A stretch of DNA of 64,000 nucleotides from Okamejei kenojei (taxonomy: Eukaryota): contig CM069142.1 in the NCBI GenBank assembly GCA_035221665.1, positions 34,472,001-34,536,000 on the forward strand. The letters are read 5' to 3'. The position numbers and the translations under genes are program-made. Below the pieces are notes generated by a model. It was not told the DNA's origin. It did no database searches and saw nothing but the letters and a program-made list of their open reading frames with translations. Positions 1,106-55,627 of this stretch are shown here, piece by piece; positions within the stretch are counted from its first letter, which is position 1, and every line of letters starts with the position of its first letter.

Positions 1106-1635
1106 ATCAAAAATGATAGTAGGATTAGGCTATTCGGCCCATCAAGTCTACTCCGTCATCAATCATGGCTCACATCACTCCCTCCTAACCCCATTCTCCT
1201 GCCTTCTCCCCATAACCTCTGACAGCAATACCAATCAAGAATCTATTTATCTCTGCCTTAAATGTATCCATTTGCTATTATACAATGGCAAGACACCGTA
1301 TGGCCTATCAGTGTCTTGAGCCAAGAGAAATAGGACAGGAATAATTGGCTTGAAGTATGATGAGGGTTTGACGGCACTGGGCCAGCATTCGCTGTTTAGA
1401 AGGATGAAAGGGGATGTCATTGAAACTTTCCAAATAGTGAAAGGCCGAGAAAGAGCAGATGCAGAGGGAAAGATAGATCAGACATGATTGAATGGCGGCG
1501 TAGATTTGATGGTCAAATGGCCTAATTCTGCTGCTATGACTAATGAACTTATCAGGGAACTACTGAGATCCTGTTTGTGCCTTGATATACGCGGTGTGAT
1601 GCCTTCAAGTGATTCTAAGACATGTCTTTCTCTAG

Positions 1636-2043
1636 TTATTCCAGATACACTGAGTGCAACATTGGTGCCTCAGGTCATCAATAAGGTGGAAGGCGATTCG
1701 CTGGAGCTGGTCTGCGAGGTATCCAAACAAACGCCGTACCACACGCATGTGGCCGTCACATGGTACCTGGAGAAGGGAGGTCAGGCGGTCCAGGTCATCG
1801 CTCTATCGCAAGATTTCATCCTGAGTGCAGGAGAGCTGTACAAGCAAAGGCAGGAGTCGGGAGACGTGAGATTGGACAAGATGGGTGCCACCTCGTTCCG
1901 GCTCACCGTCCACAAGTTACAGAGGTCCGAGCAGGGGCAGTTTCACTGCCAGAGTGTGGAGTGGATGCAAGATCCAGACAAATCCTGGCAGGAGCTGTCT
2001 GAAAGGCGGACGCACAACGTCACTGTCAATGTCAGAAGCCTGG
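1636..2043 (+). CDS. Exon: Ig V domain (equivalent to EWI domain 2)
   Basis: tctag|TTATTCCAGAT...CTGG|gtatgg; [40 protein letters not shown]; 408 nt. Confidence 0.93.
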
Positions 2044-5000
2044 GTATGGAGCAATGGTGGTTCATAAGTGCATAAGTTCTCAGAGGAGAATTAGGCCATA
2101 CTCTGCCATTCAATCATGGCTGATCTATCGCTTCCTCCTAACCCCATTCTCCTGCCTTCTCCCCATAATCCCTGGCAACCGTAGTAATCGGGAATCTGTC
2201 AGTCCCCAACTTAAAAATACCCAATGACGGCCTCCACTGCCATCTGTAGCAAAGAATTCTACAGATTCACCACCATCTGGCTAAAGAAATTCCAGCTCAT
2301 CTCCTTTCTGAAGGTACATCCTTTATTCTGAGGCTGTGCCCTGTGATTCGAGACTCTCCCACTAGTGGAAACATCCACTGTATCCAGACCTTTCACTATT
2401 CAGTAAGTCTCAATGAGTCCCCGCCCCCATCCTTCTAAACTCCAGTGAGTACAGGTCCGGTGCCGACAAATGCGCATCATATGTTAACCCAATTATCTTG
2501 GGAGGGGGGCTGCTGCTCCAGGCCCGCGGGGAGGGACAGCCCGCGGGGAGCCACCCGGGGTTGCAGGAGCGCCAACCAGGGCTGGCCTGCGGGGAAGGAC
2601 AGGAGCAGGACCCAGGCCAAGGATAGAGGTGAGGAGGGAGAGTGGGGGGTGGGATAGGAGGGGAGATGAGGAATGGGAGAGGAAGGGGATAGAGGGAGAG
2701 GAGGGGGGAGTGGGGGTGGGATAGGAGGGGAGATGAGGAATGGGAGAGGAAGGGGATAGGGGGGGAGTGGGGGAGGTAGGGAGTGGGGAATAGGAGAGGA
2801 GGGCAGTGGGGAAGGTGAGGAGGGAGAGTGGGGGAATGGGATAAGAGGGAGGTGAGGAATGGGGGACCAGGGTGGATAGAGGGAGAGCAGGGCGGTAGGG
2901 AGGGTAGAGGGGTTATGGAGAGAGGGAGGGGGAGACTGAGGGTAGGTGAGAGGGATGGGAGGTAAGAGGGAGGGAGAGGTGAGAGGGACAGGGGAAAGTA
3001 GAGGGAGGGTGAAGAGGAGGTGAGGGAGAATGGAGGACAATAGGGGTAGGAGGAGGGATGCCCATCAGCCGACAATGCGCAGTTGGGGGCTATGGGTCAG
3101 TGGTGGAATTTTGCATTGGGGTACCAGGCCTCCCTTGTGACACGAATCCAATGGGTCCCACTTGGTCTAGTATATATATATATATTACTGAAACTCTCTT
3201 CTTGGTTGTATCTATGTCTGTGATTTTGTGCGTCTGTCTGTGTGTGTGCGTGCATGTATGTGATGAGTGTGATCCTGAAATTACGCCAAAACGGTACACC
3301 AATAATACTACAATAATGTTTGGACCACCTTACTCACCATTGTCCTGTGGTGTGGCGTGGTGTGTCAAAGTTTCATTCAGATTGATGTTATATTTTACAA
3401 GTTATTCACATTTTAAACTTAAAAAATTTAACTTTTCACTTAACGTTTCACTGTAAAAAATCAAATTCCATGCTGGCCCTGCCCATTACAATGTAACAAA
3501 TTACAGGACACTGAGTCATTGTAACGGGCAGGGGCAGGGGAAGTGGAATTGTTTTTTTTTTAGGTTTATAAAGAGGGAGGGTTAAGAGGAGAGGGTGGGA
3601 GTGCTGGGGGATGAGGGGAAATGAGACGCGCCTGTGCAGTTGGGGGCTATGGGTGAATGGTGGAATATTGCGTTGGTGGGACGGGTTGCGTTGGGGTAAC
3701 GGGTGAGTGGTGGAATATTGCGTGGGAGGAACGGGTTGCATTGGCGGACCAGGCCTCCCGTGTACCAAGANNNNNNNNNNNNNNNNNNNNNNNNNNNNNN
3801 NNNNNNNNNNNNNNNNNNNNNNNNNNNNNNNNNNNNNNNNNNNNNNNNNNNNNNNNNNNNNNNNNNNNNNNNNNNNNNNNNNNNNNNNNNNNNNNNNNNN
3901 NNNNNNNNNNNNNNNNNNNNNNNNNNNNNNNNNNNNNNNNNNNNNNNNNNAAAGGATCCAAGTCCACAAATGAAAGTAGCAACAAAAATAGATGGAGTGG
4001 TAAAGAAGGCATATTGAGTATAAGAGTTGGGAAATCATGATGCTGCCTTATAAGATCAAAAGCCCTTTAACTAGCTTCGCAGTCCGCATCTATGTATCCC
4101 CTTTGTGTTCACACCTGTTTTTATCCCTCGCCTTTGTCTGACAATCTTGCTATCAGGGAACCCCATCGCCTATGATAACCTATTGCTGGCCATGATTTGT
4201 TCTGCCCCCTCTTCTCCCTTCCAGTTTTGTCTCCCACCCCCTCCCCCATGCCCCCCAACAAACAGTCTGAAGAATCCTGACCTGAAGCATCACCTATCCA
4301 AGTTCTCCAGAGATGCTGCCGGATGTGCTGAGTTAATCTAGCATTTTGTGTCTATCTTTGGTATAAACCAGTATTTGTAGTACCTTGGGTACACAAAAGG
4401 CTGGAGAAACTCAGCGGGTGCAGCAGCATCTAAGGAGCGAAGGAGATAGGCGACGTTTCGGGCCGAGACCCTTGTCGTTACATTATAAGGCTTTGGTTCG
4501 GCTGTATTTGGAGTATTGTGTGCAATTCTGGTTGCCTCATTTCAGGAAGGATGTGGAGACTCTGAAGAGGGTGCAGATGAGGTTTACAAGAACGATGCCT
4601 GCATCAGGGGGTTTAGTTACAGAGAGGTTGTACAGACTTGGATTGTGAAGACTGATTGCAGCAACCAGAAGCAATTGTAATTTAACTTCATTTAGAGATG
4701 CAGCACGGAAACAGGTCCCTCCGAACCCACGCCTACCATCAATCACCCGTTCATGCCAGTTCTATCTTATCCCACTTACTCATCCACTCCCTAAACACTT
4801 GGGGCAATTTACAGAGGGCTAATTAACCTACAAACCTTGGAAGGTAGTAGAAAACCGGAGCACCTGGAGAAAACCCACGCGGTCACAGGGAGAACGTGCA
4901 AACTCTACACACAGACAGCACCCGAGGTCGGGATCGAACTTGGGTCTCTGACACTGTAGAGGCATTCCAACCATTCAGTTACTTTAATCATTATGTGTTA

Positions 5001-8000
5001 TTTTTCCCTTGCCGACAGTTGACTTTCTCCTTTGGATGGTAACCAGTGAACTGCTGGTAATCTGAATAATTATAGTAGTGACAGGAGATGATAAGGGATA
5101 ATATACCATTGGACAGGTTAATTATGGTGGAGGCGAGTTTAAATGTAGCTTTTCTGTTGAACTTGGAGACAATGACCTTTAATAAAACACAGTGTTATAT
5201 TAATGGAGTGTGAATCACTGCTATTAAGCCTCAGCAAACGTCAACAGCAAACATCTCCCGGTTGCCAAACATTTTAACTCCACTTCTCATTTCCATACTG
5301 AGCTTTCTGTCCTGGGCTTCCTCTGCTGTCAGAGTGTGGCAAAACTCAAATTGGAGGAACGGCAGCTCATATTTTGCTTGGGCAGCTTACAACCCAGTGG
5401 TATGAATTATGATTTCTCTACTTGTAAGTAACCCTTGCATTCCCTCTCTTCCCCGTCCCCTCCCCACCCTAGTTCTCCCACCAGTTTCATTGTTTGTATT
5501 CCTTCATTATCCACCTCTTTCACCGCCAACAATGGACCAATGTGGGCTCCACCTTTCCTTGATCATCTTGCTGTCCTTGATTTGTTCTTTTCATACCTTT
5601 CTGTCTTTTGTTCTTTAACTCCTCATTCCTCTAGTTTCCCTCTCCCCTGACTTTCACCTTAAATCTATGTCCTCTAGTTCATGATTCCCCAACCTTGGGT
5701 GAAAGACTCTGTGCATCTGTCCTATCTATTCCCCTCATGATTTCAACATACACAGAGGGCGCATACTGAAATTTTAAAATACTATAATATTTCATAAAAG
5801 CAGAATTAGGCCATTCATCCCATCAAGTCTACTCCGCCATTCAGTCATGGCTGATCTACCTTTCCCTCTCAACCCCATTCTTCTGCCTTCTCCCCATAAC
5901 CCCTGATTCCCTTACCAATCAAGAATCTGCCAATCTCTGCTTTAAAAATGTCCATTGATGGCCTCCACAGCCGCCTGTGGCAATGAATTCCACAGATTCA
6001 CCACCCACTGACTAAAATAAAATAATCAGATAAAGTGTAATGGGCTATTAATGTTCAGAGTTTTGTTTGAGTTGAGTTTAATAGCCTGATGGCTGTGGGG
6101 AAGTAGCTATTCCTGAACCTGGATGTTGCAGATTTCAGGCTCCTGTACCTTCTACCTGAAGGCAGCGGGGAGATGAGTGAATGTCCAGGATGGTGTGGAT
6201 CCTTGATGATGCTGTCAGCCTCTTTGAGGCAACAACTGTGGTAGATCTCCTCGATGGTTGGGAGGTTAGAGCCGATGATAGACTGGGCAGTGTTTACAAC
6301 TTTTTGCAGTCTTTTCTGCTCCTGGGTGCACAAGTTGCCGAACCAAGCCAATGATGCAACCGGTCAGCACTTCTCTACTGTGCACCTGTAGAAGTTCGAG
6401 AGTCCTCCTTGATTTACCGACTCTACGTAATCTTCTCAGGAAGTAGAGGCGCTGATGTGCTTTCTTTATAATTGCATCAGTGTTCTCGGACCAGGAGAGG
6501 TCTTCAGAGATATGCATGCCCAGGAATTTGAAGCTTTGACCCTTTCCACCATTATCCCGTTGATATAAACGGGACTATGGGTCCCCATCCTACTCCTTCC
6601 AAAGTCCACAATCAGTTCCTTGGTTTTGCTGGTGTTGAGGGCCAGGTTATTGTGCTGGTACCATTTGGTCAAGCGGTCGATATCACTTCTATACTCTGAC
6701 TCATCCCCATCAGTGATACATCCCACAACAGTGGTGTCGTCAGCGAACTTGATGATGGAGTTCGCACTATCACCAGCTACGCAGTCATGAGTATGGAGTG
6801 AGTACAGCAGGAGGTTGAGCATGCAGCCTTGAGGTGCTCCCGTGTTGATTGTTATCGAGGCTGACACATTTCCACCAATACAGACAGACTGTGGTCTGTG
6901 AATGAGGAAGTTGAGGATCCAATTGCAGAGGGATGTGCAGAGACCCAGTTCTGAGAGTTTGGTAACCAGCTTGGAGGGGATGATTGTGTTAAATGCCGAG
7001 CCGTAGTCGATGAATAACAGGCTGACATATGAGTTTTTGTTGTCCAAGTGGTCCAGAGCGGTGTGGAGGGCCAGCAAGATCGCATCCACCGTTGATCTCT
7101 TGTGGCGGTAAGCGAACTGCAGTGGGTCCAGGTTTTTGTCGAGGTTTTTGTCAACTCTCAAAGCATTTCATCACCACAGGCGTTAGTGCCACTGGTCGAT
7201 AGTCATTGAGGGTGTCACCTTGCTCTTCTTGGGCACCGATATAATTGATGCCCTTTTAAAGAACATTGTGATTAAATAAAAATTTAAACTAAACTAAAAT
7301 TAAACTTAACTACATCTTCTAGCTAAACACAATACACTAACTGGCGCTTGCTTTATTTGCAGGTAAGGAGTTTCGTTCTCTCATTAAAGCCAAGGAAGTG
7401 AATATTAATGTAGGAGGCTCACTGGAGATTACCTGCATGGTGGAAGCTCAGAATCCTGCAGAGCGATTCTTCACGGTGGTCTGGTTCCTGAACAATGATG
7501 AGATAGTCCGTATGGAACCCAGTGCGGTCCTGTCCTTCCACGGGGAATACGGAGCGAGGGAGAATTTGGGAAAGTTGGCTGTCAGGAAGAAAGACGACAA
7601 GGAATACGTTCTGAAACTGTACCAGATTACAATGGAGGACGGTGGGAGATATCACTGCCAGGTGGAGGAGAGTGAGAAAGTTACAATGGGAGCGTTCTCA
7701 TCCAACAGGTCCGAGGAGATTGCAATCACTGTGCAAAGGCCACGTAAGGAACACGGACTTAAACAGCTTTCTTATTTTATTGTGACTAAGATAAAGTAAC
7801 AGGAAAATAATGCAATTTGGTCGTGTTTTTGATACAGCAATAGATATCGTTTTGCTGTTTACAATGCAGTAATAGAGAAAACAATGCATTTTGTAGTGTT
7901 TATGATATTGTAATAGATACGATACCTTTGTAGTTTATGTTACAGTAATAGATAAAGTACATTTTGTAGCATTTACAAAACAGTAAAAGATTAAATCGTA

Positions 8001-11000
8001 TATTTTTAGTGTTTACGATTAATCAATGAAGTTAATGCATTATTAGTGATAATATAGCAATAGAAAAAATTGTGCACTGTTAATGTGTATGATACATTGA
8101 TAGATAAAATAGTGCATTTTGATTGTAAGAAGATCTCGGCTCAGCCACAATATTGAAAAGGGTGGATGAAGCATTAATCTTGGGCAATAAAAACCAGATC
8201 AGTCTTGTGCACTCCACAATATTGCAATCGCAGTTGGTGCATGGATGAAGTGGAGGTGGGACTGGACTGAAAAAGCCTTGGCATTGGATTCAATTCATTC
8301 CTAGCCCAGTTAGGAGTAACTTTATGTATTTTTTGGCCTGGAATCCAGAATCTGTAGTTCCTTGTATCAAGAGTAAAATAGTTGGCTTTTTAGTAGGATG
8401 GATGTATGATAATGCATCGTTGGTAAGGCAAGTTTAGTCTGAAGAAATGTCCCAACCCTATCCATGTTCTCCAGAGATGCTGCGTTGAGTTACTCCAGTG
8501 TTTTGTGTAGTTTTGTTTTCACCACAAAACATTATTATTATTTGTCGTTATGTTACCTAACATTATCAATTCAAAAGATAAATACAAATGCTGGAGCAAC
8601 TCAGAGGGTCAGGCAGCATCTCTGCAGTAAAGGAATAGATGATGTTTTGGATCGAGACCCTTCTTCAGATGGAATAGTGAAAGGCCTGGATAGAGCGGAT
8701 GTGGAGAGGATGTTTCCACTATGGGGAGAGTCTAGGACCAGAGGCCATAGCCTCAGAATAAAAATACGTACCTTTAGAAAGGAGATGAGGAGGAATTTCT
8801 TTAGTCGGGGGATGGTGAATGTTTGGAATTCATTGCCACAGAAGGCTGTGGAGGTCAGGTCAATGAATATTTTAAAGGTGGAGATTGATAGGTTCTTGAT
8901 TAGTAAGGGTGCCAAGGGTTATGGGGAGAAGGTAGGAGAATGGGGTTGAGAGGGAAAGATAGATCAGTCGTTATTGAATGGCAGAGTAGACTTATTGGAC
9001 CAAATGACCTAATTCTACTCCACCAACTTGTAAACATGATTTAAATCTTGCTTTTCCTCTACCAAGTATACATTGCATCAAAGACTGCCGACATTAACAC
9101 CAACTCTCTCTTGCTTCACAGAGGCCGACCTTAAGGTGGAGATCAGCATTAATGCAACAAACATTTTGGAAGGGGATGTTCTTCTGTTTGCCTGCAACGT
9201 TCGCTCGGGGGCCTCCGTGCCTGGGCAGCTTTCTGTTATTTGGCAGTTCATGGACAAACACAACGTGAAGAGCGATATAATTGAGATGCAGCAGAATGGT
9301 GTCCAAGTCACGGCTCCGCCCTACCGTGAGCGAGTTGGTCACGGAGAAATCCGGATGGTCAGAGTGGGGTCCGATGCTTTCACCTTGGGCATTTACGATG
9401 CCAGGACTTCAGACGAAGGAATGTACTCCTGCAAAGTGATGGAATGGACAGCGGTGCTCAACCAAAACTGGAAACTAATCGGAGAATATGTCAGCAGTGA
9501 TAAGGCAGTGACGATTAAATCTCTGGGTGAGCATTTCAACATCAAGTATCTATGATACTTTGTTTTGATGCAAGGGATTTACAGCCTAGCGGCACAGTCA
9601 GAGTCATTCAGCATGGAAATAGATCCAACTCACCCACGCTGACCAAGATGTCCCATCTACACTAGTCCGTGTGGCCAATATCCTTCCAAGCCTTTCCTAT
9701 CCATGTACCCGTCCAAGTATCGCTTATATTCAATGATCACTGATACATTATTGTCACGTGTACCTAGCTGCAGTGAAATTTATTTTGCACACGTTTCTGG
9801 CACAAACAAAGTCACCTAAGTTCACCGAACGGTCCTATCTTCTTATAGTACCTGCCTCAACTACCTCCTCTGGCAACTCATTCCATATACCCCCCACCAT
9901 CCGTGTGGAAAAATGTTGCCCCATAGGTTCAGTTTACAGAAGCAGTGGGGAAATAGATCCTTCGGCCAACTGACTCCATGCTGACCACCAATCACCGTTC
10001 CCACCGTTCCCAATCACCGTTCCCACTAGTTCTATGTTATCCCACTTTCTCATCCATACCCTACACACGGGGCAATTTATAGAGGGCCAATTAAACTACA
10101 AACCGGAAGTCTTTGGGATGTGGGAGCACCCGGAGGTAACGCGTTTAGATGAATTTCTCTCTTTTTAAACATTTGTTGACAGAAAGCATCTTTAAAGTCA
10201 TTGCCATAACCCGCACGCCAACTGCAAGATACTACGGTACATTTGAACTGCAGTGCTTCATACAGCCACCAATCATCAGTCACCTCCCAATTGACGTGTC
10301 GTGGAAATTTCAGCCGGCTAATTCGACCGAGAGCTTCCACCTTGTGACTTTCAGCCACGACACTGCGATCGAGTGGGGAGACAAGGCGGTGAGCTTCAAA
10401 GGGAAAATGACAGTGGCTAAAACAGCGTCCAACACGGTCCGCTTGCACGTGTCCAGTGTCAGCAGCCTGGAAGCTGGCAAGTTTCTGTGTGACGCAGTAT
10501 TGTGGAAAAGACAACGGCCGGATCAATGGGTCAGGGTAGTCAGCATGACGTCAAACATCCTGCAGGTGGTAGTTCAAGCCCCAGGTAAGGCAATCATCCC
10601 TCCTCGTCTTTGTATGTTCCCAGCTTGGCTTCCTCTTTTTACTACAAGGAAGAAAAATAGGACTTTTAAAATGTTAGTTAGTTAGTTTAGTTTGTGGTCA
10701 CGTGTACCGAGGTACAGTGAAAAGCTTTTGAGCGTTATCCATTCAGCGGGAAGACAACACGCGATTGCAATCAAGCCTTCCGCAGTGTACAGATACGGGA
10801 TCAAAGGTATAATGTTTAGTGCAAGATAATGCTTAGTCCAGTTAATAGACACAAAATGCTGGAGTAACCCAACGGTTTAGGCAGCATCTCCTGAGAAAAG
10901 GAATAGGTGACGCTTTGGATCGGAACCCATCCTCAGAATGAGGGTGTCTTTGGAAGGGTTCCAACTCGAAATGTCACCTATTCCTTTTCTCCACAGAAGC

Positions 11001-14000
11001 TGCCCGACCTGCTGAGTTACTCCAGCATTTTGTGTCTATTGAAGTCCAGTAAAGTTTGATTAGAGATCGTCCGAGGGTCTCCAGTGAGGTAGGTGGGAGG
11101 TCAGGACCGCTCTCCAGTTGGAGGGTGTTTCAGTTGCCTGATAATTCAGTTGAATATTAAATCAAAACACACAGTGCTGGAGTAACTCAGTGGGTCAGGC
11201 AGCATCTGTGGAGGGAATGGTTTGGCTACATTTTAGGTCAGGAACCTTCTTCACAGTTGCTAATATTCAAAATATGAACAATCTGACTGAAGAAAATTTG
11301 AAGTAAAACCTAACTGATTGTTGTAAATGAATTAAAATATTAATTAAGGTGAAGTTAAAAATCACTTGGTTCAAGGATGTGGAAGGAAACTGGAGCACCT
11401 GGAGGAAACCCACGCAGAACGTGCAAACTCCATACAGACAGCACCCTAGGTCAGGGTCGAACGCAGGTCTCTGGCATTGTGAGGCAGCAGCTCTACCAGC
11501 TGCGCCACTGTGCTTAAATGGTACAAAGAAATATAATAATGTTTTTTTTTAATGTTTTCTCTTCTACTTCTGCAGTAAGCCAGTTGCAGCTTGCACAAGG
11601 GGACACAACTATATGGAAAAGGGTTAGCGACGTCATTGAACTCGATTGTAAAATCTTTGCTCAAACCCGGAATGATTCCCAGTTCTCTGTCTCATGGCTC
11701 TTCAAAAAGCCACAAGCGCAGAAGGAGATAACTCTTCTGAGCATCGATCGCAACAACGTCATTCGATACGACAAGGAATTGCGAGCCAGCGATCGGGAGG
11801 GGCCGAAGATGTGGGTTGAGAAGACTTTGCGTGATCTTTACAAACTAATTATAGGGCAAGCTGATGTGACCGATCAAGGGAATTACTGTTGTGCGGTCAC
11901 AGAATGGCTTTTAGACCCCAACAATGTTTGGTATAAAGTGGGCAAGGCCGTATCGGCAGCGACCACTGTCCAAGTGCATACACCAGGTAAACAAATCTCT
12001 CAAACGCCTCTTGACTGGAACCAATGCCACTGATTTAGGTGACGGTTTAGGTGATTGTTTACATCTCCATGAGTTCTCCAAAAGTCTCAAAGTGCTGGAG
12101 TAACTCTGTGGGTCGGGCAGCATCTCTGGACAACACGATTTTGGTGATGATTCACCTATTCCTTTTCTCCATAGATGCTGACCTGCTGAGTCTCTGTTCA
12201 GTGTAAACCAGCATTTGCACTTTCATCCTACGCCACTGAGTTAGATTGAAGTCTTGGTTTAGGTTTATTGTTATTGTTTGTGCACCGAGGTACAGTGAAT
12301 AACTTTGCCAAGCACGGCAACCAAGCAGATCAGATATACCACACGTAGATAGAGGCAGCACAGTGGCACAGCAGTGGAGTTGCTGCCTCACAGCGCCAGA
12401 GTCCCGGGTTTGATCCTGACTACGGGTGCTGTCTGTATGGAGTTTATACATTCTCCCTGTGACCGTGTGGGTTTTCTCCGGGTGCTCCAGCTTCCTCCCA
12501 CGCTCCAAAGCGTCCAAGTTTGTAGGTTAATTGGCTTCGGTAAATTATAAAATTGACCCTAGTGTGTAGGATAGTGCCAATGTACAGGGTGATCACTGGT
12601 GGGTGGGCAGAAGGGCCTGCGACCAGGCTGTATCTCTAAAGTCTAAATATACAGTCATTTCAAAAAGACACAAAGTGCTGGAGTAATTCAGCGGTTCAGG
12701 CAACATCTCTGGAGAAAATGGATCGGCGATGTTTCGGGTCGAGACTGAAGAAGGGTCCCGACCCGAGACATCCCCTATCCATTTTTATGGAAATGCTACC
12801 TGACTCGCTGAGTTACATATATTCATAACTTCCTAAGTCATAGGAGCAGAGTTAGGCCCTTTGGCCCATCGAGTCTGCTCTTCCATTCAATTTTAGCTGA
12901 TCTATCATTCCCTCTCGTACCGATTCTCCTGCCTTCTCCCCAGCCCTCCCCACTTACTCCAACATTTTGTGTCTATCTTTGGCCTGTCAGCATCTGCAGT
13001 TCCTTTTTATTGCATTTGGACTAAATGAAGTGCCACTGTTGTCCCTGTCTTCCGTCGGTTCTGCAGATGCCAATCTACAAGTCGCTGACACGGAGAGGTA
13101 TGAGTCACTCAAGGAGGATGCTGCCTTTGAACTCGAGTGTGTTATCAACAACCAAACGCAGGCAAGCTCTCAGTTCTCCGTGACATGGTTCTTCGAAAGC
13201 GAGGGGCAGTCCAGGGCATCTCGGAGAGAGCTGCTCCATACAGATCGCAACAACATCCAGCGTGACCTTGGGAACCTCACGGCAGATTCCCACAAGTCGA
13301 CACTGCAAAGTGTGAAGGTTTCCAGCAATAACTACAAGCTGATCATGACCAGCGTGGCGCCAGCTGATAGTGGCGTCTACTATTGCAGTGTGGAGGAATG
13401 GGTCACAAACGGCCAGAATCAATGGGCTCTTCAAGGAAGCGATGAATCCGGAAGAACAACCCTTAATGTACAACCTTCAGGTAATGCCAGCAGCCATTTT
13501 ACCCAGGGTGGCATGGTGGCCAAGTGGTAGAGTTGCTGCCTCACAGCGCCAGAGACCCGGGTTCGGATCCTGACTACAGGTGCTGTCTGTACCGAGTTTT
13601 ACGTTCTCCCTGTAACCGTGTGGGTTTTCTGCGGGTCCTCCGGTTTCCTCTCGCGTCCCCAAAAAGCACAGGTTTGTAGCTTAATTGACTTGGGTAAAAA
13701 TTGGACATTGTCCCCAGTGTGTGTCGGATAGTATTAGTGTACAGGACATGGACTCGATGTGCTGAAGGGCCTGTTTCCACCTTGTATCTCTGAAGTAATT
13801 CGACCTATTTTATTATTCTCCTTCTTTGACAACATGACCTGCTTCGAGCCATAAAAACAGGCAATTCTGCCCAACTTGCCCTTGCTGATCAAGATGCCCC
13901 ATCTACACTGTTCCCACCTGTTTGCTTTTGGCCCATATAACATCTTTAATAACATGATAATGTCTTTAATAAGCTTTAGAGTAATAGCTAAATATATAAT

Positions 14001-17000
14001 TATCCTGAAGGTATACATAGAATAAATAAAAGCTTTATTGGAATAATTAAATTCTCCAAATTCAAAATCCTGTGATTTTCTATAAAGAAAAAAAAAATTA
14101 CTTACAGAATTATACAAATGAGCCGTCCGACCCAACCTAGTCAATGGTGGATATGCGGTGCTGGAGTTACTCAGCAGGTCAGGCAGCATCTCTGGAAAAC
14201 ATGGATAGGTGACGTTGGTCCCAACCCAAAACATCCCCTATCCATGTTCTCCAGAAATGCTGCTGGACCTGCTGAGTAACTCCAGCACCGCATGTCCTTT
14301 TGTGTAAACCAACATCCGCAGTTCCTTGCTTCCACTGTGAAAGGTGGAATTTATTTTCCAGTAGCAACTCTTCCACCTTTTCCTAATATGATTATATTAT
14401 GTGTTCTAAATGTGGACTAGCTAAGTTTCATAATAAAACTTACTTTGATTCGACCTCAAGTTATGTTTTGCAAAACTTCTCCACTTTTGTCTCTTTGGAA
14501 ATGAACACACAATCTTAGTTCACTTTTATTTTGTCATTAGTGAGGTTATGATTTGAATATTTGTTCTGTAAAATCTCTGAGTTCTTCGAATTCATTTAAA
14601 TTCCACAAATAATATGTTGAGTTTTGAGTTTCGTTCATTGTCACGTGCACCGAGGTACAGTGAAAAGCTTCTGTTGTGTGCTAACCAGTGATAACACATC
14701 ATATATTGGAGTGCTGGAGGATGGGAAGTGATTTAAATGGGTACATGGATGGGAACGGTTTAGAGGGACGTGGGCGGGTGGGACTAGTGTAGATGGGGTA
14801 TCTTGGTCGCCAGGGACTTCCACCCTCGCTTGTATCCACCTATCACTCACCAGGCTTTGCCTCAATCCAACTCACTTTTCCAGCTTTCTCCCGCCTACTG
14901 CAATCATTCCAAAGAAGAGTCTTGAGCTGGCCCGCTGAGTTCCTCCAGCACTTTGTGTTGCTCTACTCTGTACTCCTCTGGGTCTCCCTCCATCATTAAT
15001 TTAGCTTATTGAGTTAAAAAATACAATGTGGAAACAGGCCTTTGAGCCCACCGAAGCCACGCCGACCAGCGATCACCCCATACACTATTCCTATCCTTCA
15101 CCTAAGGGCCAATTTACAAAAGCAAATTAACCTACAAACCTGTACGTCTTTGGAGTGTAGGTGGAAAGCAGAGCACCTGGAGAAAATCTACCACTGCGCT
15201 ACTGTGCCACCTCACGTTGCCTCTAAGTTTATTTATTATTTCTGGCTGTTTCTATTTTCTTCCTCCAAGGGAACCTTCAGACTGTTGAACACCACACATC
15301 ACTACATCACTACCCCAGCAACAGCGGACTAAAATGGACCTTGTTTTAGTTGCGCTGTAGAACTTTGGTTTTGCACTATTATGATCTAGTTGCCTAACAG
15401 TACTGATCATAGATTGATAGTATTGTTCATTATTGTATATTTATTTGAATCCTTTACGTTAATGGACCTGTTACGCTGCAGCAAGTAAGAAACTCATTGT
15501 TCCGTTGCCGCCACATATGACAATTAAACACTCTCGGCTCTTGAATTCCATTATTTTTCTTATCACTGAAATTAAACTATTGGGATTATTGTTCCCTGGA
15601 GATATTTCACTTCCCTTTTCAAATTTCCCATTACCCAAGCTATTGCACAGACCCTTGGCATCTATTTAAAGCAAATTGTTATGTGTAATTGTGTTTCTGT
15701 TTTCCTGGATTCTCTCCCTTACCAGAGTCAACCATTCAGATCAAGACTTTGATTGTCTTCATTTGATTAGCTTTTTATTTTAAATGCGGCTTTATTATTT
15801 TAATCTCGCGTTTTGATGCTGTGTCAGCAGATTCCCTGATAAATGCCAAAACTAAATAATTACTTCATATATCTTATTTTTAATACTGCATTCTGTGATT
15901 TAATCCTGTCATAGACCGTAGAACATTGAACAGTACAGCGCAGGAGCAGGCCATTCGGCCCACAATGCCCATGCCAAACACAATGCCAAATGAAAATAAC
16001 CTCTGCCTGCATGTGATGCATATCCCTCCGTGGGGTCAGCCCACTCCACGACAGAAGGGGGAGGATTTGTAGTTTAGTTTAGAGATACTGCGTGGAAACA
16101 GGCCCTTCGGCCCACCGAGTCTGTGCCAACCATTGACCCCCACACACAAATACTATCCTACACACTCTGGGGACAATTTACAATTTTACTAAAGCCAATC
16201 CTGTACGTCTTTGGAGTGTGGGTGGAAACTGGAGCACCCAGAGAAAACCCACGCAGTCACAGGGAGAACGTACAAACTCCATACAGACAGCACCCGTGGT
16301 CAGGATTGAACCGGGGACACTGGCGCTGTGAGGCAGCAATGCTACTGCTGTGCCGCCTGTATTGCAACTTTCCTTTTACTTGACATTTGTCAAGTCTTTC
16401 ACGTTTTTCTTTTGTCTTTTGATGAAGTAATTCAGTTGTTTTTATTTGCCTTCCAAATTGATTTTGTTAAAAATCATTTTCTCTAATAATCTTTTGTAAT
16501 CTTTATTATTGTTCTTCCCTGCTGTTCATGTACCAAGTTTGATACTTTCTTTTCACTCATTTTCATTCCTCCTGCATCTTAATTCATCCGTAGGGCTTAG
16601 TTTGTTTTTATTTGAGTAGCCTATATTTTCCTGGCCTCTGTTGGAAGCTCGTTTATATGTTCCCCACTGTTTTTCAATCTTATTTTCTGCCAACAATATT
16701 GTGTATTTTATTTACCAGGTTCTAGTCTTATACCCTTGACGCTGTCTGGTCTCCATTCTGTGGCAGGCTCATTATCTTACCCATGTCCTCAATAATTATC
16801 TTAACGCATGTTATATTATTTGGGCACTTGAAGAAGGGCCCTGACTAGAAACGGCACCTGTCCATTCATTCCACGGATACTGCCTGACTCGTCGAGTTCC
16901 TCCAGCGCTTTACGCTTTGCTCAAGATTCCTGCATCTGCAGTTCCTAGTGTCTTTATATTATTTGGCACATCCATAGAACACCCATGTTCTCTAGAGATG

Positions 17001-20000
17001 CTGCCTGACCCTCTGACTTACTCCAGCAATCTGTCTTATTTTGTAGACCCAGCATCTGCAGTTCCTTGTTTTAATATTATCTGGTATTGTTTTATTAAAA
17101 GACCATAGGACACAGGAATGTTCAGCCCATCTAGTCTACTCCGCCATTCAATCATGGCTGATCTAGTTTTCCCTCTCAACCCTGTTCTTCTGCCTTCTCG
17201 CTGTAACCTTTAATGTGCTCACTAATGGAGAACATCAATCTTTGTTTTAAAAATACCCAATGACTTGGCCTCCACTGCTGCCTGTGGCAATGAATTCCAC
17301 AGATTCATCATCTTTGGCTAAATAAATTCCTCCTCGTCTCCATTCTATTGTCACGTGTCCCGAGGTACAGTGAAAAGTTCTTGTTTGTGTGTTATCCAGT
17401 TAAATTACCCCTTGGTCACATTTTCTCTTTTTGTAATGGTACAGCACGCCAACACCCCTTAAGTGATACGTTTGTTTATTAATGTGAAGGAAGAAACTGC
17501 AGATGCTGGTTTAAACCGAAGATAGACACAAAAAGCTGGAGTAACTCAGCGGGACAGGCAGCAACTCTGGAGAGAAGGAATGGGTGACGTCTTGGGTCGA
17601 GACCCATTTCTCTTTCCAGTGAATTTCAGTCTGAAGAAGATTCTCGACCTGAAACGTCACCCATTCCTTCTCTGCAGAGATGCTGCCTGTCCCGCTGAGT
17701 TACTCCAGATTTGTGTGTATCTTCTGTTTGTTTATTAATAATGCTTAGCTGATGGATAATGTAAGTGAATGATTTAGAACATTTATTCGCTTAGAATTAG
17801 AGTTCTGTTATTATACGTATTACAAGTTAAAGTGTCTGCGACCGTGGGTATATTGATGGATAGTTGTTGATAAATGTAGGAACGGGAACTGCAGATGCTG
17901 CTTTACAAAAGAGACACAAAGTGCTGGAGTAACTCAGTGGGTTGGGCACCATCTCTGGTGGACATGGATCGGTGATGTTTCTGGTCAGGCCCCTTCCTCA
18001 AGTGTCCTCCAGAGATGCTGCCCGACCCGCTGAGTTACTCCAGAACTTTGAGTCTTTTCGTGATTACTCTAGGGTTTTTTTTAACTGGTTTTCCTAATTT
18101 ATTTGCACACTCAATTTACATCAAGTGCTGGTTTAGTTTGTATTACTGATGGAGCCATGCTGCTGCTATTTTATCCGGTGGATGCTAATACTGAAGTACT
18201 TTCCACATTGAAGTTGCCTCAGGACACTAGACACGCGAGCCAAGACCAAATCATTGGCTTATGGGCACGCAAATTTAATTACTTATTTTATAATCTCCAT
18301 TCAAATGAACATAATTATTCAGAGCTCTTTATTGCTCCTAATGATTCATTCAACAGAGGCTACCTACTGCTTGAATCATCTTGCTAATCCCTACTTTATT
18401 CAGTAAGACCTTGGAGGTACAGCACGGAAACAGGCCCTTCGGCTCAACGGGTCTGCACCGACCACCGATCATCCCACACACTAGCGCTACCCGACACAAT
18501 TTACAATTTTACCGAAGCCAATTAACCTGTAATTCTTTGGAGAGTTGGAGGGAACCAGAGCACCCGGAGAAAATCCACATGGTCACAGGGAGCACGTACA
18601 CACTGCGTACAGACAGCACCCATAGTCAGGTTCGAACCAGGATCTCTGGCGCTGTAAGGCAGCAGCTCTACCGCTGTGCCACTGTACCGCTCCATTTGTA
18701 AAGAGATAACCAGATGGGAGTACATGTTGAGGGACTCACTGAAGCTCGGTGGGGGAGGACAACACTCAAGGAGCCTTCCGCTGCTGGACAATGAGGGGGC
18801 TGAGCCTGGTGGGAAGGGATATCACCCCAGAGGACCACATGAGCGGCAAGGGTATCTTGTTTAATGATAGGCGCAACACAGTTGACAGTACAGTGGTGCA
18901 GCGGGTAGAGCCACTGCCTCACAGCGCCAGAGACCTGGGTTCGATCCTGACCTCGGGTGCCAAATTCTGTGTGGAGTTTGCATGTTCTCCCTGTGACTGC
19001 CTGGGTTTGCTCTGGGTGCTCCCACATCGTAAAGACGTGCGGGTTAGTGGGTTAATTGACCCTCTGTAAATTGCCACTGGTGTGTAGGGAGTGGATGAGA
19101 AAATGGGATAACTTTGACCTAATGTAAACGGGTCAGCATGGCCTTGGTGGGCCAAAGTGCCTGTTCCCATGCTGTATCTCTGAAACTAAACTGCTGAGTA
19201 TGACACTATTAGAGTAATGGAGTCGTACAGCATGGAAATGGGCTCTTCAGCCCAAGCTGACCAACGTCACATTTACACTAGTTCCACCTGAATGCATTTG
19301 GCCCATATCCCTCTAAACCTATCCTATCCATGTACCTATTCAAACATTTGTTGAAATGTTGTGACAGTACCTGCCTCAACAACCTCCTCTGGCAGCTTGT
19401 CCCACCATGCTCTGTGTGAAAAAGATGGCTTCAGGTTCCTATTGAATCTTTACCTCCTCGCCTTAAACCAATGTCCTCTGGTTCTTTATTCTGATTAAAT
19501 GTGTAGACACTGAGAATGAATGAAGACTTTTTGCAGTTTTTTATTTTTTATTTTTTTTTTTAATTTTGAATGATGTTTGTTTGAATAACAAGACCATGGG
19601 TACTCAAAAACAGAATATATTTTAGATGGTAGGATTTGAAGAGAAGCTCTCTTGAGCACTTCCTCCAAATGCAAATGTGTGAATCTTTCTTTAGATGCAG
19701 TCCTGGCCGTTGAACTTCTTCATTCTTTGATCCGATGCCTGCATTGTGGTTAAATTGAAGAAGTGAAAATCTCCCTCCTGATATAGTTTTAGTAGTTCTG
19801 GTTGCCTATTGGCACTTCACAGTCTTTTAAATAACTATACCCTGGGTATAATCAAACTAAACCTCAATCCCTAGTACAACCCAGGCAGTTGGTAGCTTGG
19901 ATTGGAGTTTAGTTGGAGTTTGTACTGTTTGATATCCTGATAGTTGGGAAGAAACGTTTGATATGCAGTTCATTGTTTCAAAGAACATTACCACTGCTAA

Positions 20001-20244
20001 CAAGATTTTTGCCTCTTTATTTCCAGCTGTTACACTCCACACCAAAGCCTGTGCCTCTCCATCCCTCTTCTACTTCCTATTTATCTACCCGTTCATCATC
20101 GCCATAGTTCTCTTCGTCCTCATTGTCTACTTTTACCTGAACCCGAAAAAGCCGCAGAAATCTTCTCAAGAAAATAATTTTTGGGCACCGATTGAACCCA
20201 TCGGTGACGATCTGAAAAATGAAGAGGATACAAGTGTGATATGA
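1636..20244 (+). CDS. EWI-family Ig superfamily type I membrane protein (CD101/IGSF2- or IGSF3-like), 5'-partial; join(1636-2043,7363-7743,9122-9526,10183-10584,11576-11986,13067-13480,20027-20244)
   Basis: Seven exons with canonical AG/GT ends, all phase 1, joining in one frame. Six V-set Ig domains (C..W..D-x-G-x-Y/F-x-C, EW motifs) collinear with recalled IGSF3/CD101 sequences, then TM and a short tail. Orthology CD101 vs IGSF3 is not resolved. Confidence 0.93.
2070..2497 (-). mobile_element. CR1 (HER1-like) LINE 3' fragment
   Basis: Same tail and ORF2 end as the CR1 at 58010-58890. Confidence 0.8.
2500..3770 (+). mobile_element. Two head-to-tail non-autonomous Helitron-like units
   Basis: Subterminal hairpin remnant (gaatccaatgggtcc) plus CTAG at 3167-3170, followed directly by tatatat..attactgaaac; the 3' block 3078-3140 recurs at 3636-3765. 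Confidence 0.6.
2620..3060 (+). repeat. Polypurine (G/A) low-complexity tract
   Basis: Almost only G and A, with many G3-G7 runs. Confidence 0.9.
3771..3950. other. Assembly gap
   Basis: Run of N. Confidence 1.
5235..5655 (+). mobile_element. Penelope-like element remnant (end of GIY-YIG domain plus pyrimidine-rich 3' region)
   Basis: Homologous to 50340-50516 ([27 protein letters not shown]). Confidence 0.75.
6050..7262 (-). mobile_element. Rex1/Babar-type LINE, 5'-truncated, frameshifted RT
   Basis: [55 protein letters not shown]. Confidence 0.88.
7363..7743 (+). CDS. Exon: Ig V domain (domain 3)
   Basis: tttgcag|GTAAGGAG...CCAC|gtaagg; [37 protein letters not shown]; 381 nt. Confidence 0.92.
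7805..8122. repeat. Degenerate AT-rich minisatellite, about 35-39 bp x 8
   Basis: Recurring unit like gatacagtaatagataaaa..gcattttgtagtgttta. Confidence 0.7.
8670..9035 (+). mobile_element. CR1 LINE 3' fragment
   Basis: [38 protein letters not shown]. Confidence 0.85.
9122..9526 (+). CDS. Exon: Ig V domain (domain 4)
   Basis: ttcacag|AGGCC...CTGG|gtgagc; [31 protein letters not shown]; 405 nt. Confidence 0.93.
10183..10584 (+). CDS. Exon: Ig V domain (domain 5)
   Basis: ttgacag|AAAGC...CCAG|gtaagg; [32 protein letters not shown]; 402 nt. Confidence 0.93.
11576..11986 (+). CDS. Exon: Ig V domain (domain 6)
   Basis: tctgcag|TAAGC...CCAG|gtaaac; [36 protein letters not shown]; 411 nt. Confidence 0.93.
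12353..12647 (+). mobile_element. HE1-like V-SINE, full length
   Basis: A box (tggcacagcagt), B box (ggtttgatcc), V-domain, CR1-like tail. Confidence 0.88.
13067..13480 (+). CDS. Exon: membrane-proximal Ig V domain (domain 7)
   Basis: tctgcag|ATGCC...TCAG|gtaatg; [46 protein letters not shown]; 414 nt. Confidence 0.93.
13506..13792 (+). mobile_element. HE1-like V-SINE
   Basis: Same head, V-domain and tail; starts about 25 nt after the exon donor. Confidence 0.88.
16070..16358 (-). mobile_element. HE1-like V-SINE
   Basis: Reverse-complement match to the SINE family. Confidence 0.85.
17484..17725. mobile_element. Penelope-related fold-back element with hammerhead-like core
   Basis: Inverted arms (acacaaaaagctggagtaactcagcgggacaggcagc / gctgcctgtcccgctgagttactccag); CTGAAGA 17631-17637, GAAACGTC 17651-17658; 14-bp TSD gtttgtttattaat (17470-17483, 17726-17739). 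Confidence 0.75.
18410..19192. mobile_element. Divergent SINE pair (18410-18690 minus, 18885-19192 plus) around a Tx1-type 3' fragment (18715-18870 plus)
   Basis: SINE consensus matches; [11 protein letters not shown] matches the Tx1-type fragment at 56.7-57.0 kb. Confidence 0.75.
20027..20244 (+). CDS. Terminal coding exon: stalk, transmembrane helix, cytoplasmic tail, stop
   Basis: tttccag|CTGTT; [45 protein letters not shown]...EEDTSVI-TGA; C-x-S-x-x-LFYF..YPF motif as recalled in IGSF3/CD101. Confidence 0.9.
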
Positions 20245-36081: not shown

Positions 36082-38597
36082 TTGTTAAATATTTTTATTG
36101 TAGAAACATATTAATAAAAAATGCATTATTAGATACATTCATAATATTATTAATATTAATATTAAGATTTAAGACTTTATGTTTCTATATACTTTAAAAA
36201 AAATTTTTATAAAGTAGGAAGAGATAGAGAAAAATAATATAGAAAATAAGGAAGTGAATGGAGTATTAATCAATAATCCGGCATTGGAGATATAACCATG
36301 ATTTATTATGCGTAATTCTTCATCCATTCTATTATTCAGGTCTCAGTCAAGCCCTCGCACTGAGCCACTTTGACCCTGTAAATATTCAATATATGGAGAT
36401 CATATCCCTCTGAAGAGATCCAACCTGTCCATTAGGACAAGCCTTAATCTTTCCAGATGGAGTGTCTCCGACATTTCTGTATTCCACATTTTGATTGTGG
36501 GGGATGTAGGACCTTTCCAGAATTTTAGTATTAATTTTTTCCCAATTATTAAACCATAATCAATAAAGATTCTTTGATTCGTTGTTATTAATTGGTCTGT
36601 TTCCAGTATTCCTAGTATTATTAACTTTGAATCAGGGGTCAGATTCATATTGACAACATTCAAAATTATCCTAAATATTTCTATCCAAAATTTCGTAATC
36701 TTTACACAATTTGTAAATGAGTGTGTCAGATTAGCTTCTAAATGTTGACATTTATCACATATGGGAGATACTTTTGGAAAGATGTTATGTAGTTTGGATT
36801 TTGAATAATGTAGTCTATGTAGTATTTTAAACTGTATAAGAGAGTGTTTAGCATTTAACGAACAATGGTGTATATGTTGTAAACTTTCGTCCCATACTTC
36901 TGGTCTTATAATTTGACCTAATTCGTTTTCCCAAGATTGTCTATATATTTCTGCTGATGGGACATCATTTTCCAATAGGGTGTTATATATATATATATAT
37001 ATATATGAAATCATTTTTTCTGTGTTCGGATGTTTATTTAGACATTCATCTAAAATTTCTGTCTTTCTATTTCTAAGTTCCTGTGTGTTTGCTTTTACAT
37101 AGTCTCTGATTTGTAAATATCTAAAATAATCTATAGAATGTAGTCCATAAATTTGTTGTAATTCTTGAAATGAAAGGAAAGAGTTTTCCTTATAGAGATC
37201 ACCCATCTTAATAATTCCCTTGTTTTTCCATTGTAAAAAGCCTTCATCCATCATTGAAGGTTTAAATGTAACGTTATTTACAATGGTAAGGGCTAGTGGT
37301 ATAGATTTCAGTTTTAATGTTTTCTTTATTTGTTTCCAAATACATATTCCACTTTCTATTATCGGGTTTTCACTATAGATTTTCTTAGCTAAATTAATAT
37401 TAGCGAATATTATTGAACTAATTTCAAAAGGAGAACAATCTTCTTTTTCCATATTTAACCAAATTGGTTGGTTATCTGTCTCTTCTATCCAAAAATTCAT
37501 ATTTTTAATATTAACTGCCCAGTAATAAAACATAAAATTTGGTAGTGCTAAACCTCCATTTATTTTTAATTTACATAAATGTTTTTTATTTATTCTATGG
37601 CTCTTATAATCCCAAATAAAGTTAGTAACTAGGGAGTCCACCTTCTTAAAGACATTTTTAGGAAGATATATCAGAATTAATTGGAAAAGATATAACAATT
37701 GTGGAAGAAAAATCATTTTTATTATTTTAATTTTACCTAACATTGAAATAGGTAGAGTTTTCCAATATAAAATATTCTTATTTAATTTATTCAATAGTAG
37801 TGGGAAGTTAGATTTAAATAAAGAATCAAATCTCTTTGTTACATAAATTCCAAGATATTTAATTTTTTCATTTGTTATCTTAAAAGGAAATTGTTGTAAT
37901 ATGTGTAAGTTATTTACCGTTATTGACATAAGTTCACTTTTATTCCAATTGATACTATATCCTGAAAAAGATCCGAATTCAGTTATTAATTTTAACAAAT
38001 TTTGTATACTAATTTCTGGTTTTGTGATGTAAAGTAATACATCATCCGCGTATAAGGAGATTTTATTTTTAGTATCTCTAGTATCATACCCATATATTAC
38101 AGGATGTAATCTCACCCCCTGAGCTAACGGTTCTATTGCAAGTGCAAACAGTAGGGGGGATAAAGGGCAACCTTGTCTACAGCCTCGAGATAAATTGAAT
38201 TTAGTTGATAACATTTGATTTGTTATTATTCTAGCTGTTGGGTTTGTATATAATAATTTGATCCAAGTAATGAACTTCTCTCCCAATTTAAAAGTTTCCA
38301 TAACCGAAAACAAATAGGACCATTCCACCTGATCGAAGGCTTTCTCTGCATCACGAGATAACTACTAGATCTTTTTTAATACCTCTTTTCGAATATATAA
38401 TATTGAATAACCGTCTCAAGTTATATGAGGAATATCGTTTTGGTATAAATCCTGTTTGATCGGGGTAAATTAATTCATTAATAACTGTGCTTAGCCTTTG
38501 TGCTAATATTTTGGTTAATATCTTTTGATCAGTATTTAAAAGAGCTATAGCTCTAAATGATCCTGGTTCATCCAGATCTTTGTTTATTTTAGGTATG
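36082..38597 (-). mobile_element. 5'-truncated L1-clade LINE with a 642-aa open RT plus CCHC region (36400-38328)
   Basis: RGCRQGCPLSPLLF, ISLYADDVL, KYLGI, GGLALPN, CDKC..HSFTNC. Confidence 0.95.
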
Positions 38598-39614: not shown

Positions 39615-40735
39615 TCATGTCATGTGATAGGAGAAGAATTAGGCCATTCAGCCCATTAAGTCTACTCTGCTATTCAATCATGGCTGATCAATCTCTCCCT
39701 CCTAACCCCATTCTCCTGCCTTCTTCCCATAACCTCAGTCATCTGTATTAATCAAGAATCTATCTGTCTCTTCCTTAAATATATCCACTGACTTTGCCTC
39801 CACAGCCTTTAATGGCAAAGAATTCCGCAGATTCACCACCCTCTGACTAAAGAAATTCCACCTCATCTCCTTCCTAAAAGAACGTCCTTTAATTCTGAGA
39901 CTATGACCTCTAGTCCCAGACTCTTAGTGGAAACATCCTCTCCACATCCACTCTACCCAGCCTTTCACTATTCTGTATGTTTCAATGAGGTCCCCCCCCT
40001 CATTCTTCTAAACTCCAGTGAATATAGGCCCAGTGCTGTCTGACACCCATCATATGTTAATCTACTCATTCCTGGGTAGACAGAAAATGCTGGAGAAACT
40101 CAGCGGGTGAGGCAGCATCTATGGAGAAAAGGAGTAGGTGACGTTTAGGGTCGAGACCCTTCTTCAGACTGGGATCATTCCTGGGATCATTCTTGTCAAC
40201 CTCCTCTGGACCCTCTCCAGAGCCAGCACATCTTTCCTCAGATATGGTGCCCAAAATTGCTCACAATATTCCATATGCGGCCAGACCAGCGCCTTATAAT
40301 TTCTGGATTCTCTCCCCATTTAGAAAATAATCTACGCCTTTAATCCTACTGCCAAAACGCAAGACTCCACACTTTGCTAGACTATATTCCATCTTCCATC
40401 TCTCTGCCCACTCTCCCAAGCTATCCAAGACCTTCTGCAGAGTCCCTGCTTTCTCCACACTACCTGCCCCTCCACCTATTTTCGTATAATCCGCAAACTT
40501 GGACCCCCATCCACATCATTGATATCCAATGTGAAGAGCAGCGGCCCCAGCACCGAGCCCTGTGGAACTCCGCTAGTCACTGGCAGCAAACCAGAAAAAG
40601 CTCTTTGTCTTCTGCCCTCCAGCCAACATGATATCCATGTTAGTATCGGCCCTTTGATACCATGGGCTCTCACCTTCCTTAGCAGCCTTCCGTGTGGCAC
40701 CTTATCAAAGGCTTTCTGATAATCTAGATATACAA
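39615..40735 (-). mobile_element. Degraded CR1 ORF2 3' region with a Penelope-related arm inserted at 40075-40170
   Basis: PHGRLLRKVRAHGI..VTSGVPQGSVLGPLLF; tcattcctggg repeated around the insert. Confidence 0.85.
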
Positions 40736-50142: not shown

Positions 50143-50516
50143 ATGCTACACTTGTCGCTTTACCGCCACCCTCGACTCCATCCAAGGACTGAAACAGTCT
50201 TTCCAGGTGAGGCAGAGGTTCACCTGCACCTCCTCCAACCTCATCTACTGCATCCGCTGCTCTAGGTGTCAACTGCTCTACATCGGTGAGACCAAGCGCA
50301 GGCTTGGCGATCGCTTCGCCCAACACCTCCGCTCAGTTCGCATTAACCAACCTGATCTCCCGGTGGCTCAGCACTTCATCTCCCCCTCCCATTCCGAATC
50401 CGACCTTTCTGTCCTGGGCCTCCTCCATGGCCAGAGTGAGGCCCACCGCAAATTGGAGGAGCAGCACCACATATTTTGCTTGGGTAGTTTACACCCCAGC
50501 GGTAGGAACATTGACT
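50143..50516 (+). mobile_element. Penelope-like GIY-YIG endonuclease fragment inserted in a minus-strand SINE (50015-50697)
   Basis: FTCTSSNLIYCIRCSRCQLLYIGETKRRLGDRFAQH..PVAQHF..KLEEQHHIFCLGSLHPSG. Confidence 0.9.
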
Positions 50517-50934
50517 TTAACCTAGAAACCTGCATGTCTTTGGAATACGGGAGGACATCAATGCACCCAAAGAAAACCCACACGGTCACAGGGAGAACGT
50601 ACAAACTCCACACAGACAGCACCCATAGTCAGGATTGAACCCAGGTCTCTGGCGCTGCAAGGCAGCAACTCTGCGGGCGTGACATCGTGCTGCCCGTGAA
50701 TAATTTAGTGCAGCGTGAATACTTGTTAGTGTCAGATAAAGGATATTTGTATGATCCATTAATCTAAGCTCAAGCAACATTTGCCAAACTGTCACATCTG
50801 AAGTTGAAAGAGTTTTGTACACTACCAAAGACGGGCATCCATATGAATGCCTTCCTGTGTGGAAAGGTTGAGGAGTCTGTCTATATTTTACATTGCAAGT
50901 TAAAGATTAACGAGGCAAGAATTAGATAGAGTTG

Positions 50935-55415: not shown

Positions 55416-55451
55416 ACTCACAGGAAGCCACAGGCAACAAGATGTAATAGC

Positions 55452-55556: not shown

Positions 55557-55627
55557 AAGATGTAATAGCACGTATTTCCACGAGAGGGAGTAATTTAGCA
55601 GATGAGCTCATAACATTTAAACTATCA

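Follow-up and report, generated by a model that had tools for sequence, protein, structure and literature searches.

The window analysed here is a 64,000-nt stretch of the Okamejei kenojei genome (contig CM069142.1, forward-strand positions 34,472,001 to 34,536,000). At one end it carries a plus-strand gene (1488–20244) with at least six V-set immunoglobulin (Ig) exons and a transmembrane exon near 20060, which is presumably IGSF3/CD101-like; the host exon itself matched generic Ig domains only. The focal unit, at 17484–17725, sits in the last intron of this multi-V-set gene. Remnants of LINE reverse transcriptases (RTs) and an AP-endonuclease fragment, all on the minus strand, lie at 6469–7167, 36403–38361, 40479–40784, 44849–46462 and 47667–48074, and two of the LINE remnants in the window have long open frames of 653 and 538 aa. 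An HTH fragment on the plus strand (52984–53334) resembles Tc1/Sleeping Beauty transposase at a score below the Pfam cut-off for that family. The first-pass annotation of this DNA had reported remnants of a Penelope GIY-YIG endonuclease, and two such remnants of Penelope-like elements (PLEs) were confirmed, both on the plus strand. One, at 50141–50521, comprises the linker and GIY-YIG, lacks its own terminal arm and is 83% identical to protein P0002; the other, at 5231–5419, is an older GIY-YIG fragment with 56% identity to P0002.

The focal unit is 242 bases long and is bracketed by a perfect, AT-rich target site duplication (TSD) of 14 bp on the plus strand (17470–17483 and 17726–17739). Reading from the left, it consists of a 36-nt PLE tail (17484–17519, minus strand), an inverted arm derived from the PLE pseudo-LTR (pLTR; 17520–17609, minus strand, profile positions 12–101), a junction linker of 16 nt (17610–17625) and a sense arm (17626–17725, plus strand, profile positions 3–100) that belongs to subfamily cluster 0 and has no tail, so that the left arm is the sole tailed one. 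In long elements, the 36-nt tail continues into the 5′ region of the ORF. The linker is not common to the unit near 61 kb or to the nine best genome-wide look-alikes. The sense arm contains a decayed minimal hammerhead ribozyme on the plus strand (17631–17658), recognised by its features against the consensus in PMC4209133: CTGAAGA at 17631–17637, an extra A at 17638, a stem II with two of four pairs at 17639–17650, GAAA at 17651–17654 and CGTC at 17655–17658, with a predicted cut after 17658. Hammerhead cores had been proposed on both strands of this unit. This could not be upheld; the left arm retains stem II (17594–17605) and the GTC triplet and is without CUGANGA and GAAA, and the core of the right arm has the half-paired stem II just described. 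No hammerhead family of Rfam was matched. When folded, the unit forms a near-perfect hairpin (–158.7 kcal/mol, z = –19.7). A match to the MIR2118 family of Rfam (window 17540–17703; 49.8 bits, gathering score 85) reflects the hairpin only. Fold-back units may be misannotated in this way as miRNA precursors, and they would form long dsRNA in host introns. We conclude that the focal unit is a single insertion of two head-to-head PLE pLTR copies in which the ribozyme motif is broken.

The motif that these repeats had been reported to share is real, with 10 matches at three or fewer mismatches in the window and none in 100 shuffles. Profile (HMM) searches identified 38 arms in the window and likewise bore out the head-to-head pairing of arms, with nine such pairs. 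Apart from the focal unit, these pairs lie at 10844–11041, 12080–12195, 12663–12816, 14157–14299, 17909–18058, 51123–51341, 51796–51949 and 61119–61371. The last of these has its tail on the left arm and a 13-bp TSD with one mismatch (61119/61359). Three units had been cited as whole insertions flanked by TSDs. The TSDs are present and each of these units is a single TSD-flanked insertion, but the one at 55439–55569 (plus strand, 13-bp TSD, 55439/55557) is a solo arm without tail and not a fold-back. Copies had also been placed in the introns and 3′ UTR of the host gene. This holds for the focal unit, but past about 22 kb the copies are downstream of where the gene probably ends.

To place the arm within its parent element, we used 30 genomic loci fetched with the GIY-YIG remnant of the window. 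In 25 of these, a sense arm lies 86–130 nt (about 110 nt) downstream of GIY-YIG; the window's own remnant is among the five loci without a downstream arm. Walking upstream, a sense arm was found directly before the ORF region in 15 of the 30 loci, and 14 of these arms are tailed. The arm before the ORF is often preceded by a truncated GIY-YIG and UTR. An arm after GIY-YIG plus an arm before the ORF constitutes a partial-tandem pLTR. In locus L156, a single 555-aa frame encodes RT and GIY-YIG with a CxxxxCxxC linker between them, and a pyrimidine-rich UTR and the arm follow; its Pfam matches to RVT_1 and GIY-YIG are weak and below cut-off, and the motifs are visible by inspection. RT with C-terminal GIY-YIG in a single ORF was shown for arm clusters 1 and 5. 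Among PLEs with an endonuclease (EN+), the Neptune/Nematis type is defined in PMC8557442 by a CX2-5CxxC linker before EN and two cysteines within GIY-YIG, and both the CxxxxCxxC linker and the two cysteines are visible in P0001 and P0002. A search of the PDB with P0002 gave no matches. The parent protein has 1225 relatives with the same domains, the closest named ones being from sharks and rays (58–67% identity). Further hallmarks of EN+ PLEs are present here, namely an inverted 5′ pLTR, a tail of 30–40 bp at one end and a TSD of variable length. The arms also form a continuous 5′-truncation series back into the 3′ UTR, GIY-YIG and RT. Together, these data indicate that the arm is the pLTR of an EN+ PLE of the Neptune/Nematis type. 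PLE machinery, which had been proposed as the mobilising agent, is the likely one. A distinct non-autonomous, retrozyme-like family, as first suggested, is not what we found, since the arm is a PLE terminus in a truncation series and arrays of intact ribozymes were not seen in a 1.4-Mb genomic sample.

Two further features of the parent element were observed. The N-terminal part of the ORF is long and contains short tandem repeats that vary (L169, L170 and L184; upstream of the DKG motif by about 1.4 kb). In 21 of the 30 loci, a donor-like site occurs about 32 nt after the tail and an acceptor-like site 107–130 nt further on (minus strand, L203:1762–1879, with like positions in L191–L220), and a frame that opens in the arm runs into a stop within this stretch. 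The stretch may be a retained spliceosomal intron. In the genome, the unspliced motif was matched 1159 times and the spliced one not at all; one contig from run X1 skips 119 nt, but the skip is placed 28–29 nt off and is ambiguous. In a distant PLE relative on a metagenome contig (L283), an inverted arm lies on one side (1926–2027, minus strand) and a sense arm on the other (4196–4298, plus strand).

The abundance of the arm was estimated by a profile search of 140 arbitrary 10-kb stretches of the genome (1.4 Mb). This sample contains 630 arms of about 100 nt, or 4.5 per 10 kb, and 11 of the 140 stretches have none; the reversed sequence of the first 100 stretches gave no profile matches. The arms span 50 kb of the 1.4 Mb, about 3.6% of the genome. 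By extrapolation, there would be about 1.2 million arms and about 0.2 million fold-backs genome-wide. The arms fall into six clusters with 6–22% divergence from their own consensuses. Long, UTR-bearing members occur in clusters 0, 1, 4 and 5, and at least one copy linked to GIY-YIG in all six. Such linkage was seen in 2 of 137 sampled copies of the focal subfamily; in two other subfamilies, the counts are 10 of 63 and 8 of 43. Members of the focal cluster have a UTR of their own, about 225 nt long, which runs back to GIY-YIG in L120 and in one of 12 fetched loci (L120, L272); its linkage is to GIY-YIG only, and no RT linked to this subfamily was found. An ATG frame is open through the tail in cluster 1 and appears closed in cluster 0. 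The RNA data, 24 runs, were all assembled contigs; arm sequence is present in three RNA libraries, which does not by itself prove transcription, starts or cleavage.

By its sequence, the motif is a genuine, putatively catalytic minimal hammerhead at the level of the family. The minimal type I features (the core, an extra base after A9, G10.1-C11.1 and a palindromic helix III) are found in all six consensuses, CpG decay aside, and the focal copy itself fails them. For stem II, four pairs around a 4-nt loop are a better reading than five pairs around a 2-nt loop. In this genome, stem I is 2 bp, with A-C as the third pair in 175 copies, and a helix I of 4–5 bp is absent. Stem covariation within this genome was not seen, the changes being one-sided and mostly CpG decay. 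Among 80 metagenome loci with RTs 38–61% identical, 27 have at least 250 nt past GIY-YIG, and eight of these carry the motif in sense 101–152 nt downstream; there were no antisense matches and none in 540 shuffles. In 13 distinct motifs from these relatives, stem I positions 1–3 pair in 13, 11 and 12 cases, with swaps among A-U, U-A, G-C and C-G and with pairing not required by the search, although several of the 13 are close kin and do not represent independent events. Stem I is 3–5 bp in 11 of the 13. This covariation and the consensus features support the Penelope-type minimal hammerhead that had been proposed. A comparison of core and flanks had been set beforehand as a test, with a divided outcome: outside CpG sites, the core is no better kept than its flanks across genomic copies (0.91 versus 0.88–0.92), but it is kept across distant PLE lineages.

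Most copies appear to be inactive, as had been suspected. A strict descriptor was passed by 31 of the 630 arms and a relaxed one by 62; for the 38 arms of the window the numbers are 0 and 2. Two intact cores occur in one of 120 fold-backs. In a fold-back, the cores on opposite strands would pair with each other's complement and so would not form the dimer that minimal hammerheads need; the hairpin is predicted to bury the catalytic core. The hammerhead is probably a passenger, selected in master elements and decaying neutrally after insertion.

Arms have two discrete 3′ ends that lie 36 nt apart, the difference being the PLE tail, which was detected on 158 of 430 arms versus 18 of 2000 random 55-mers. 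Among 120 head-to-head pairs, both 3′ ends fall inside the sampled stretch in 88. One tail is present in 67 of these, none in 20 and two in 1, whereas 41.9, 32.5 and 13.5 would be expected under independence. The sole double-tail case looks like a false call, and by eye about eight of the 20 no-tail cases carry a decayed tail. A single TSD of 9–17 bp brackets the whole pair in 21 of 64 fold-backs versus 1 of 192 mismatched controls, and all 21 have one tail. Among short solo arms, a TSD was found in 29 of 113 versus 3 of 447 controls; 22 of these 29 have their end no more than 9 nt from CUGA. No TSD scored in 43 of the 64 fold-backs and 84 of the 113 solos. The TSDs are 65% AT compared with 56%. 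The two arms belong to the same subfamily in 65 of 78 pairs (21% expected) and have more private changes in common (21.7% versus 8.5%), which fits one template or later conversion; in only 40 of 92 pairs does the partner arm rank among the top 5% of look-alikes. The 120 pairs have 110 distinct junction signatures, and junctions also differ in the nine best look-alikes of the focal unit. Junctions thus differ from copy to copy, which argues that fold-backs are not copied as a unit and that each is built at insertion. A few fold-backs with shared junctions or flanks (L027:2352/L083:4196, L114:2458/L232:1707 and L083:3477/L019:1) are apparently passengers in larger repeats.

We therefore consider it probable that a fold-back is one insertion of two head-to-head pLTRs of an EN-bearing PLE, likely made when the enzyme of the element primed reverse transcription from both nicked target strands. 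One target strand would prime at the tail end of the RNA and the other 36 nt further in; both cDNAs would extend towards the RNA 5′ end, and their 3′ ends would be joined, often over a few shared bases. This model draws on genomic footprints, and priming of each strand at a different site would be the simplest joint reading of them. In vitro, the protein of an anole PLE cuts and extends both strands and has two internal RT starts that bracket the tail (PMC11167929). That paper also predicts that the protein is a dimer and finds ribozyme cleavage dispensable. Inverted stubs consisting of the tail only occur upstream of 13 of 247 tail-less arms and 1 of 115 tailed arms (p = 0.044). The similarity of the two arms could stem from gene conversion within the hairpin.

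Self-priming is the strongest competitor, and we regard it as unlikely. Here the first cDNA, or an antisense RNA, would fold back and be copied, and the endonuclease would trim the intermediate to leave a one-sided tail. Such self-priming has already been proposed (PMC3846280), as has a tail formed by EN-mediated resolution (PMC8557442). It accounts for arms of the same subfamily with shared private changes, and equally for the overlap (negative gap) at 51 of the 120 junctions. However, a tailed cDNA that snapped back should leave its tail on the longer arm, and in the 67 single-tail fold-backs the tailed arm is longer in 22, shorter in 22 and about equal in 23. Moreover, solo arms mostly have the tail-less 3′ end (253 of 371), as would be expected of a true start site.

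The other end of the arm is also fixed. Most short copies begin 1–4 nt before the hammerhead core, and an upstream UTR is missing from 214 of 282 arms with an anchored core. The loss per nt is 0.5% in the arm body and about 13% just before the core, a stop that would be inflated if rare or old UTR types escape the extended class. Contigs of two other organisms diverge at the same point (L156:3331, 18 contigs from each). The sequence TCAGT, which precedes the core, resembles an initiator. An internal TATA-less promoter is described for D. virilis Penelope (PMC2377424). Our best guess is that an RNA start causes the fixed 5′ boundary, with most cDNAs of the both-strand priming model perhaps stopping 1–4 nt before CUGA where the RNA would begin; a protein footprint or a nuclease block is equally open. 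A cap-derived extra G was considered and is not supported, with G at 11 of 33 non-C bases at position –4 in short solos and a weak signal in fold-backs (12 of 21). Splicing out of the pyrimidine-rich UTR as the cause is likewise not supported; for the one donor of one subfamily tried, the spliced junction had no matches and the unspliced one 1931. Nor is there support for ribozyme cleavage as what sets the copy ends, as there is no peak of 5′ ends (6 at position 36 and 1–6 at its neighbours). Inserts defined by TSDs showed no 5′ exon shared by short copies.

The fixed start and the many arms without UTR can also be taken to mean that solo pLTRs give rise to a short non-autonomous RNA (the hammerhead plus 100–137 nt) that is mobilised in trans in a SINE- or retrozyme-like manner, at least in the focal subfamily. 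The focal cluster is rarely linked to GIY-YIG and its ATG frame appears closed, in line with this scenario, and pLTRs are reported to act in trans (PMC3846280). We consider it improbable, and more so than self-priming. No subfamily is private to short copies, junctions are unshared, 602 of 631 same-strand runs consist of one arm, two intact ribozymes were seen in only 3 of the 102 same-strand pairs that lie within 1 kb, and there is no excess of 5′ ends at the ribozyme cut. Independent adjacent insertions or later rearrangement, for which the density of arms and the many units without detectable TSD could be cited, are largely refuted as the source of fold-backs and very improbable given the head-to-head excess among neighbours within 30 nt (112 versus 25 tandem and 4 tail-to-tail), the single TSD that brackets a pair, the tail exclusion and the subfamily matching.

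A more specific form of the both-strand priming model is put forward tentatively, at somewhat less than an even chance. In this form, PLE integration would be two-handed: a dimeric enzyme would use one RNA on both target strands, with one start always at the tail end and the other 36 nt inward; an RNA starting at the foot of the hammerhead would yield only stubs of 100–137 nt. If true, this single rule would account for the tail, for the inverted pLTR, for the abundance of solo ends and for why full copies need tandem read-through. The roughly 200,000 fold-backs extrapolated for this genome are material to test this rule.

Inverted pLTRs, one-sided tails, solo pLTRs and hammerhead pairs on opposite strands are already published (PMC3846280, PMC8557442 and PMC4209133). 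How PLEs make an inverted pLTR and a one-sided tail is called an open question in PMC8557442, and the steps after priming are described as unvalidated in PMC11167929. A title-level literature search outside subscription journals returned no prior account of twin priming by PLEs and no chondrichthyan description. For the existing in vitro system, the counts made here predict a single tail in each fold-back, either arm as the longer one and a single template, and they open a model of PLE integration to testing. In annotation, the 100-nt end should be filed as a PLE pLTR rather than under SINE, miRNA or retrozyme. Seen as a ribozyme discovery, the finding is ordinary.

In L1 twin priming, too, both target strands prime on the element RNA, and the resulting head-to-head inversion is enclosed by one TSD; there the second priming site varies and the two cDNAs are without overlap. 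By contrast, the second site is fixed here and the same 100 nt is present in both arms. Non-LTR retrozymes (Li et al., 2026, bioRxiv 10.64898/2026.07.22.740005) are alike in having a type I hammerhead, in deriving from PLE pLTRs and in being non-coding. As described in the consulted part of that preprint, they form head-to-tail arrays with a complete ribozyme in each unit, unlike the dispersed solo or head-to-head arms with mostly broken ribozymes seen here. Arrays of intact ribozymes of this type were not found in the 1.4-Mb sample, where none of the 3 intact same-strand pairs abuts, and propagation as a unit of its own, by which retrozymes are recognised, is not seen, as junctions differ. 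The preprint lists one chondrichthyan in the part consulted, and the family described here may be included in its supplements.

The minimal type I hammerheads described from metazoan PLEs (Cervera and De la Pena, 2014; PMC4209133) share with this motif CUGANGA, the extra base after A9, G10.1-C11.1 and the palindromic 15.1-16.1 without loop 3, and they too occur genome-wide as solo copies or opposite-strand pairs. Helix I here is 2 bp, as in D. virilis, rather than 4–5 bp, and helix II is 4 bp rather than 6–8 bp. Poseidon PAc of Anolis carolinensis (Frangieh et al., 2024; PMC11167929) is similar in that a hammerhead lies at the pLTR-ORF junction, two copy ends bracket the tail and targets are AT-rich. 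The CxxxxCxxC linker is present in the element described here and, in the sources as far as consulted, absent from Penelope and Poseidon. In contrast to our reading, the portion of PMC11167929 consulted does not tie the two starts to two strands or to fold-backs. A like architecture is seen in EN+ PLEs such as D. virilis Penelope and A. vaga Pen2a (PMC3846280, PMC8557442 and PMC2377424), which have RT with C-terminal GIY-YIG, a partial-tandem pLTR, a head-to-head inverted copy, a tail of 30–40 bp at one end, a variable TSD and strong 5′ truncation. As a comparison, TSDs here are 9–17 bp versus 8–10 bp for A. vaga, and both arms are usually cut to about 100 nt in what extrapolates to roughly a million copies. 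The tail rule and the symmetry of the arms, which are described for known EN+ PLEs, are counted here.
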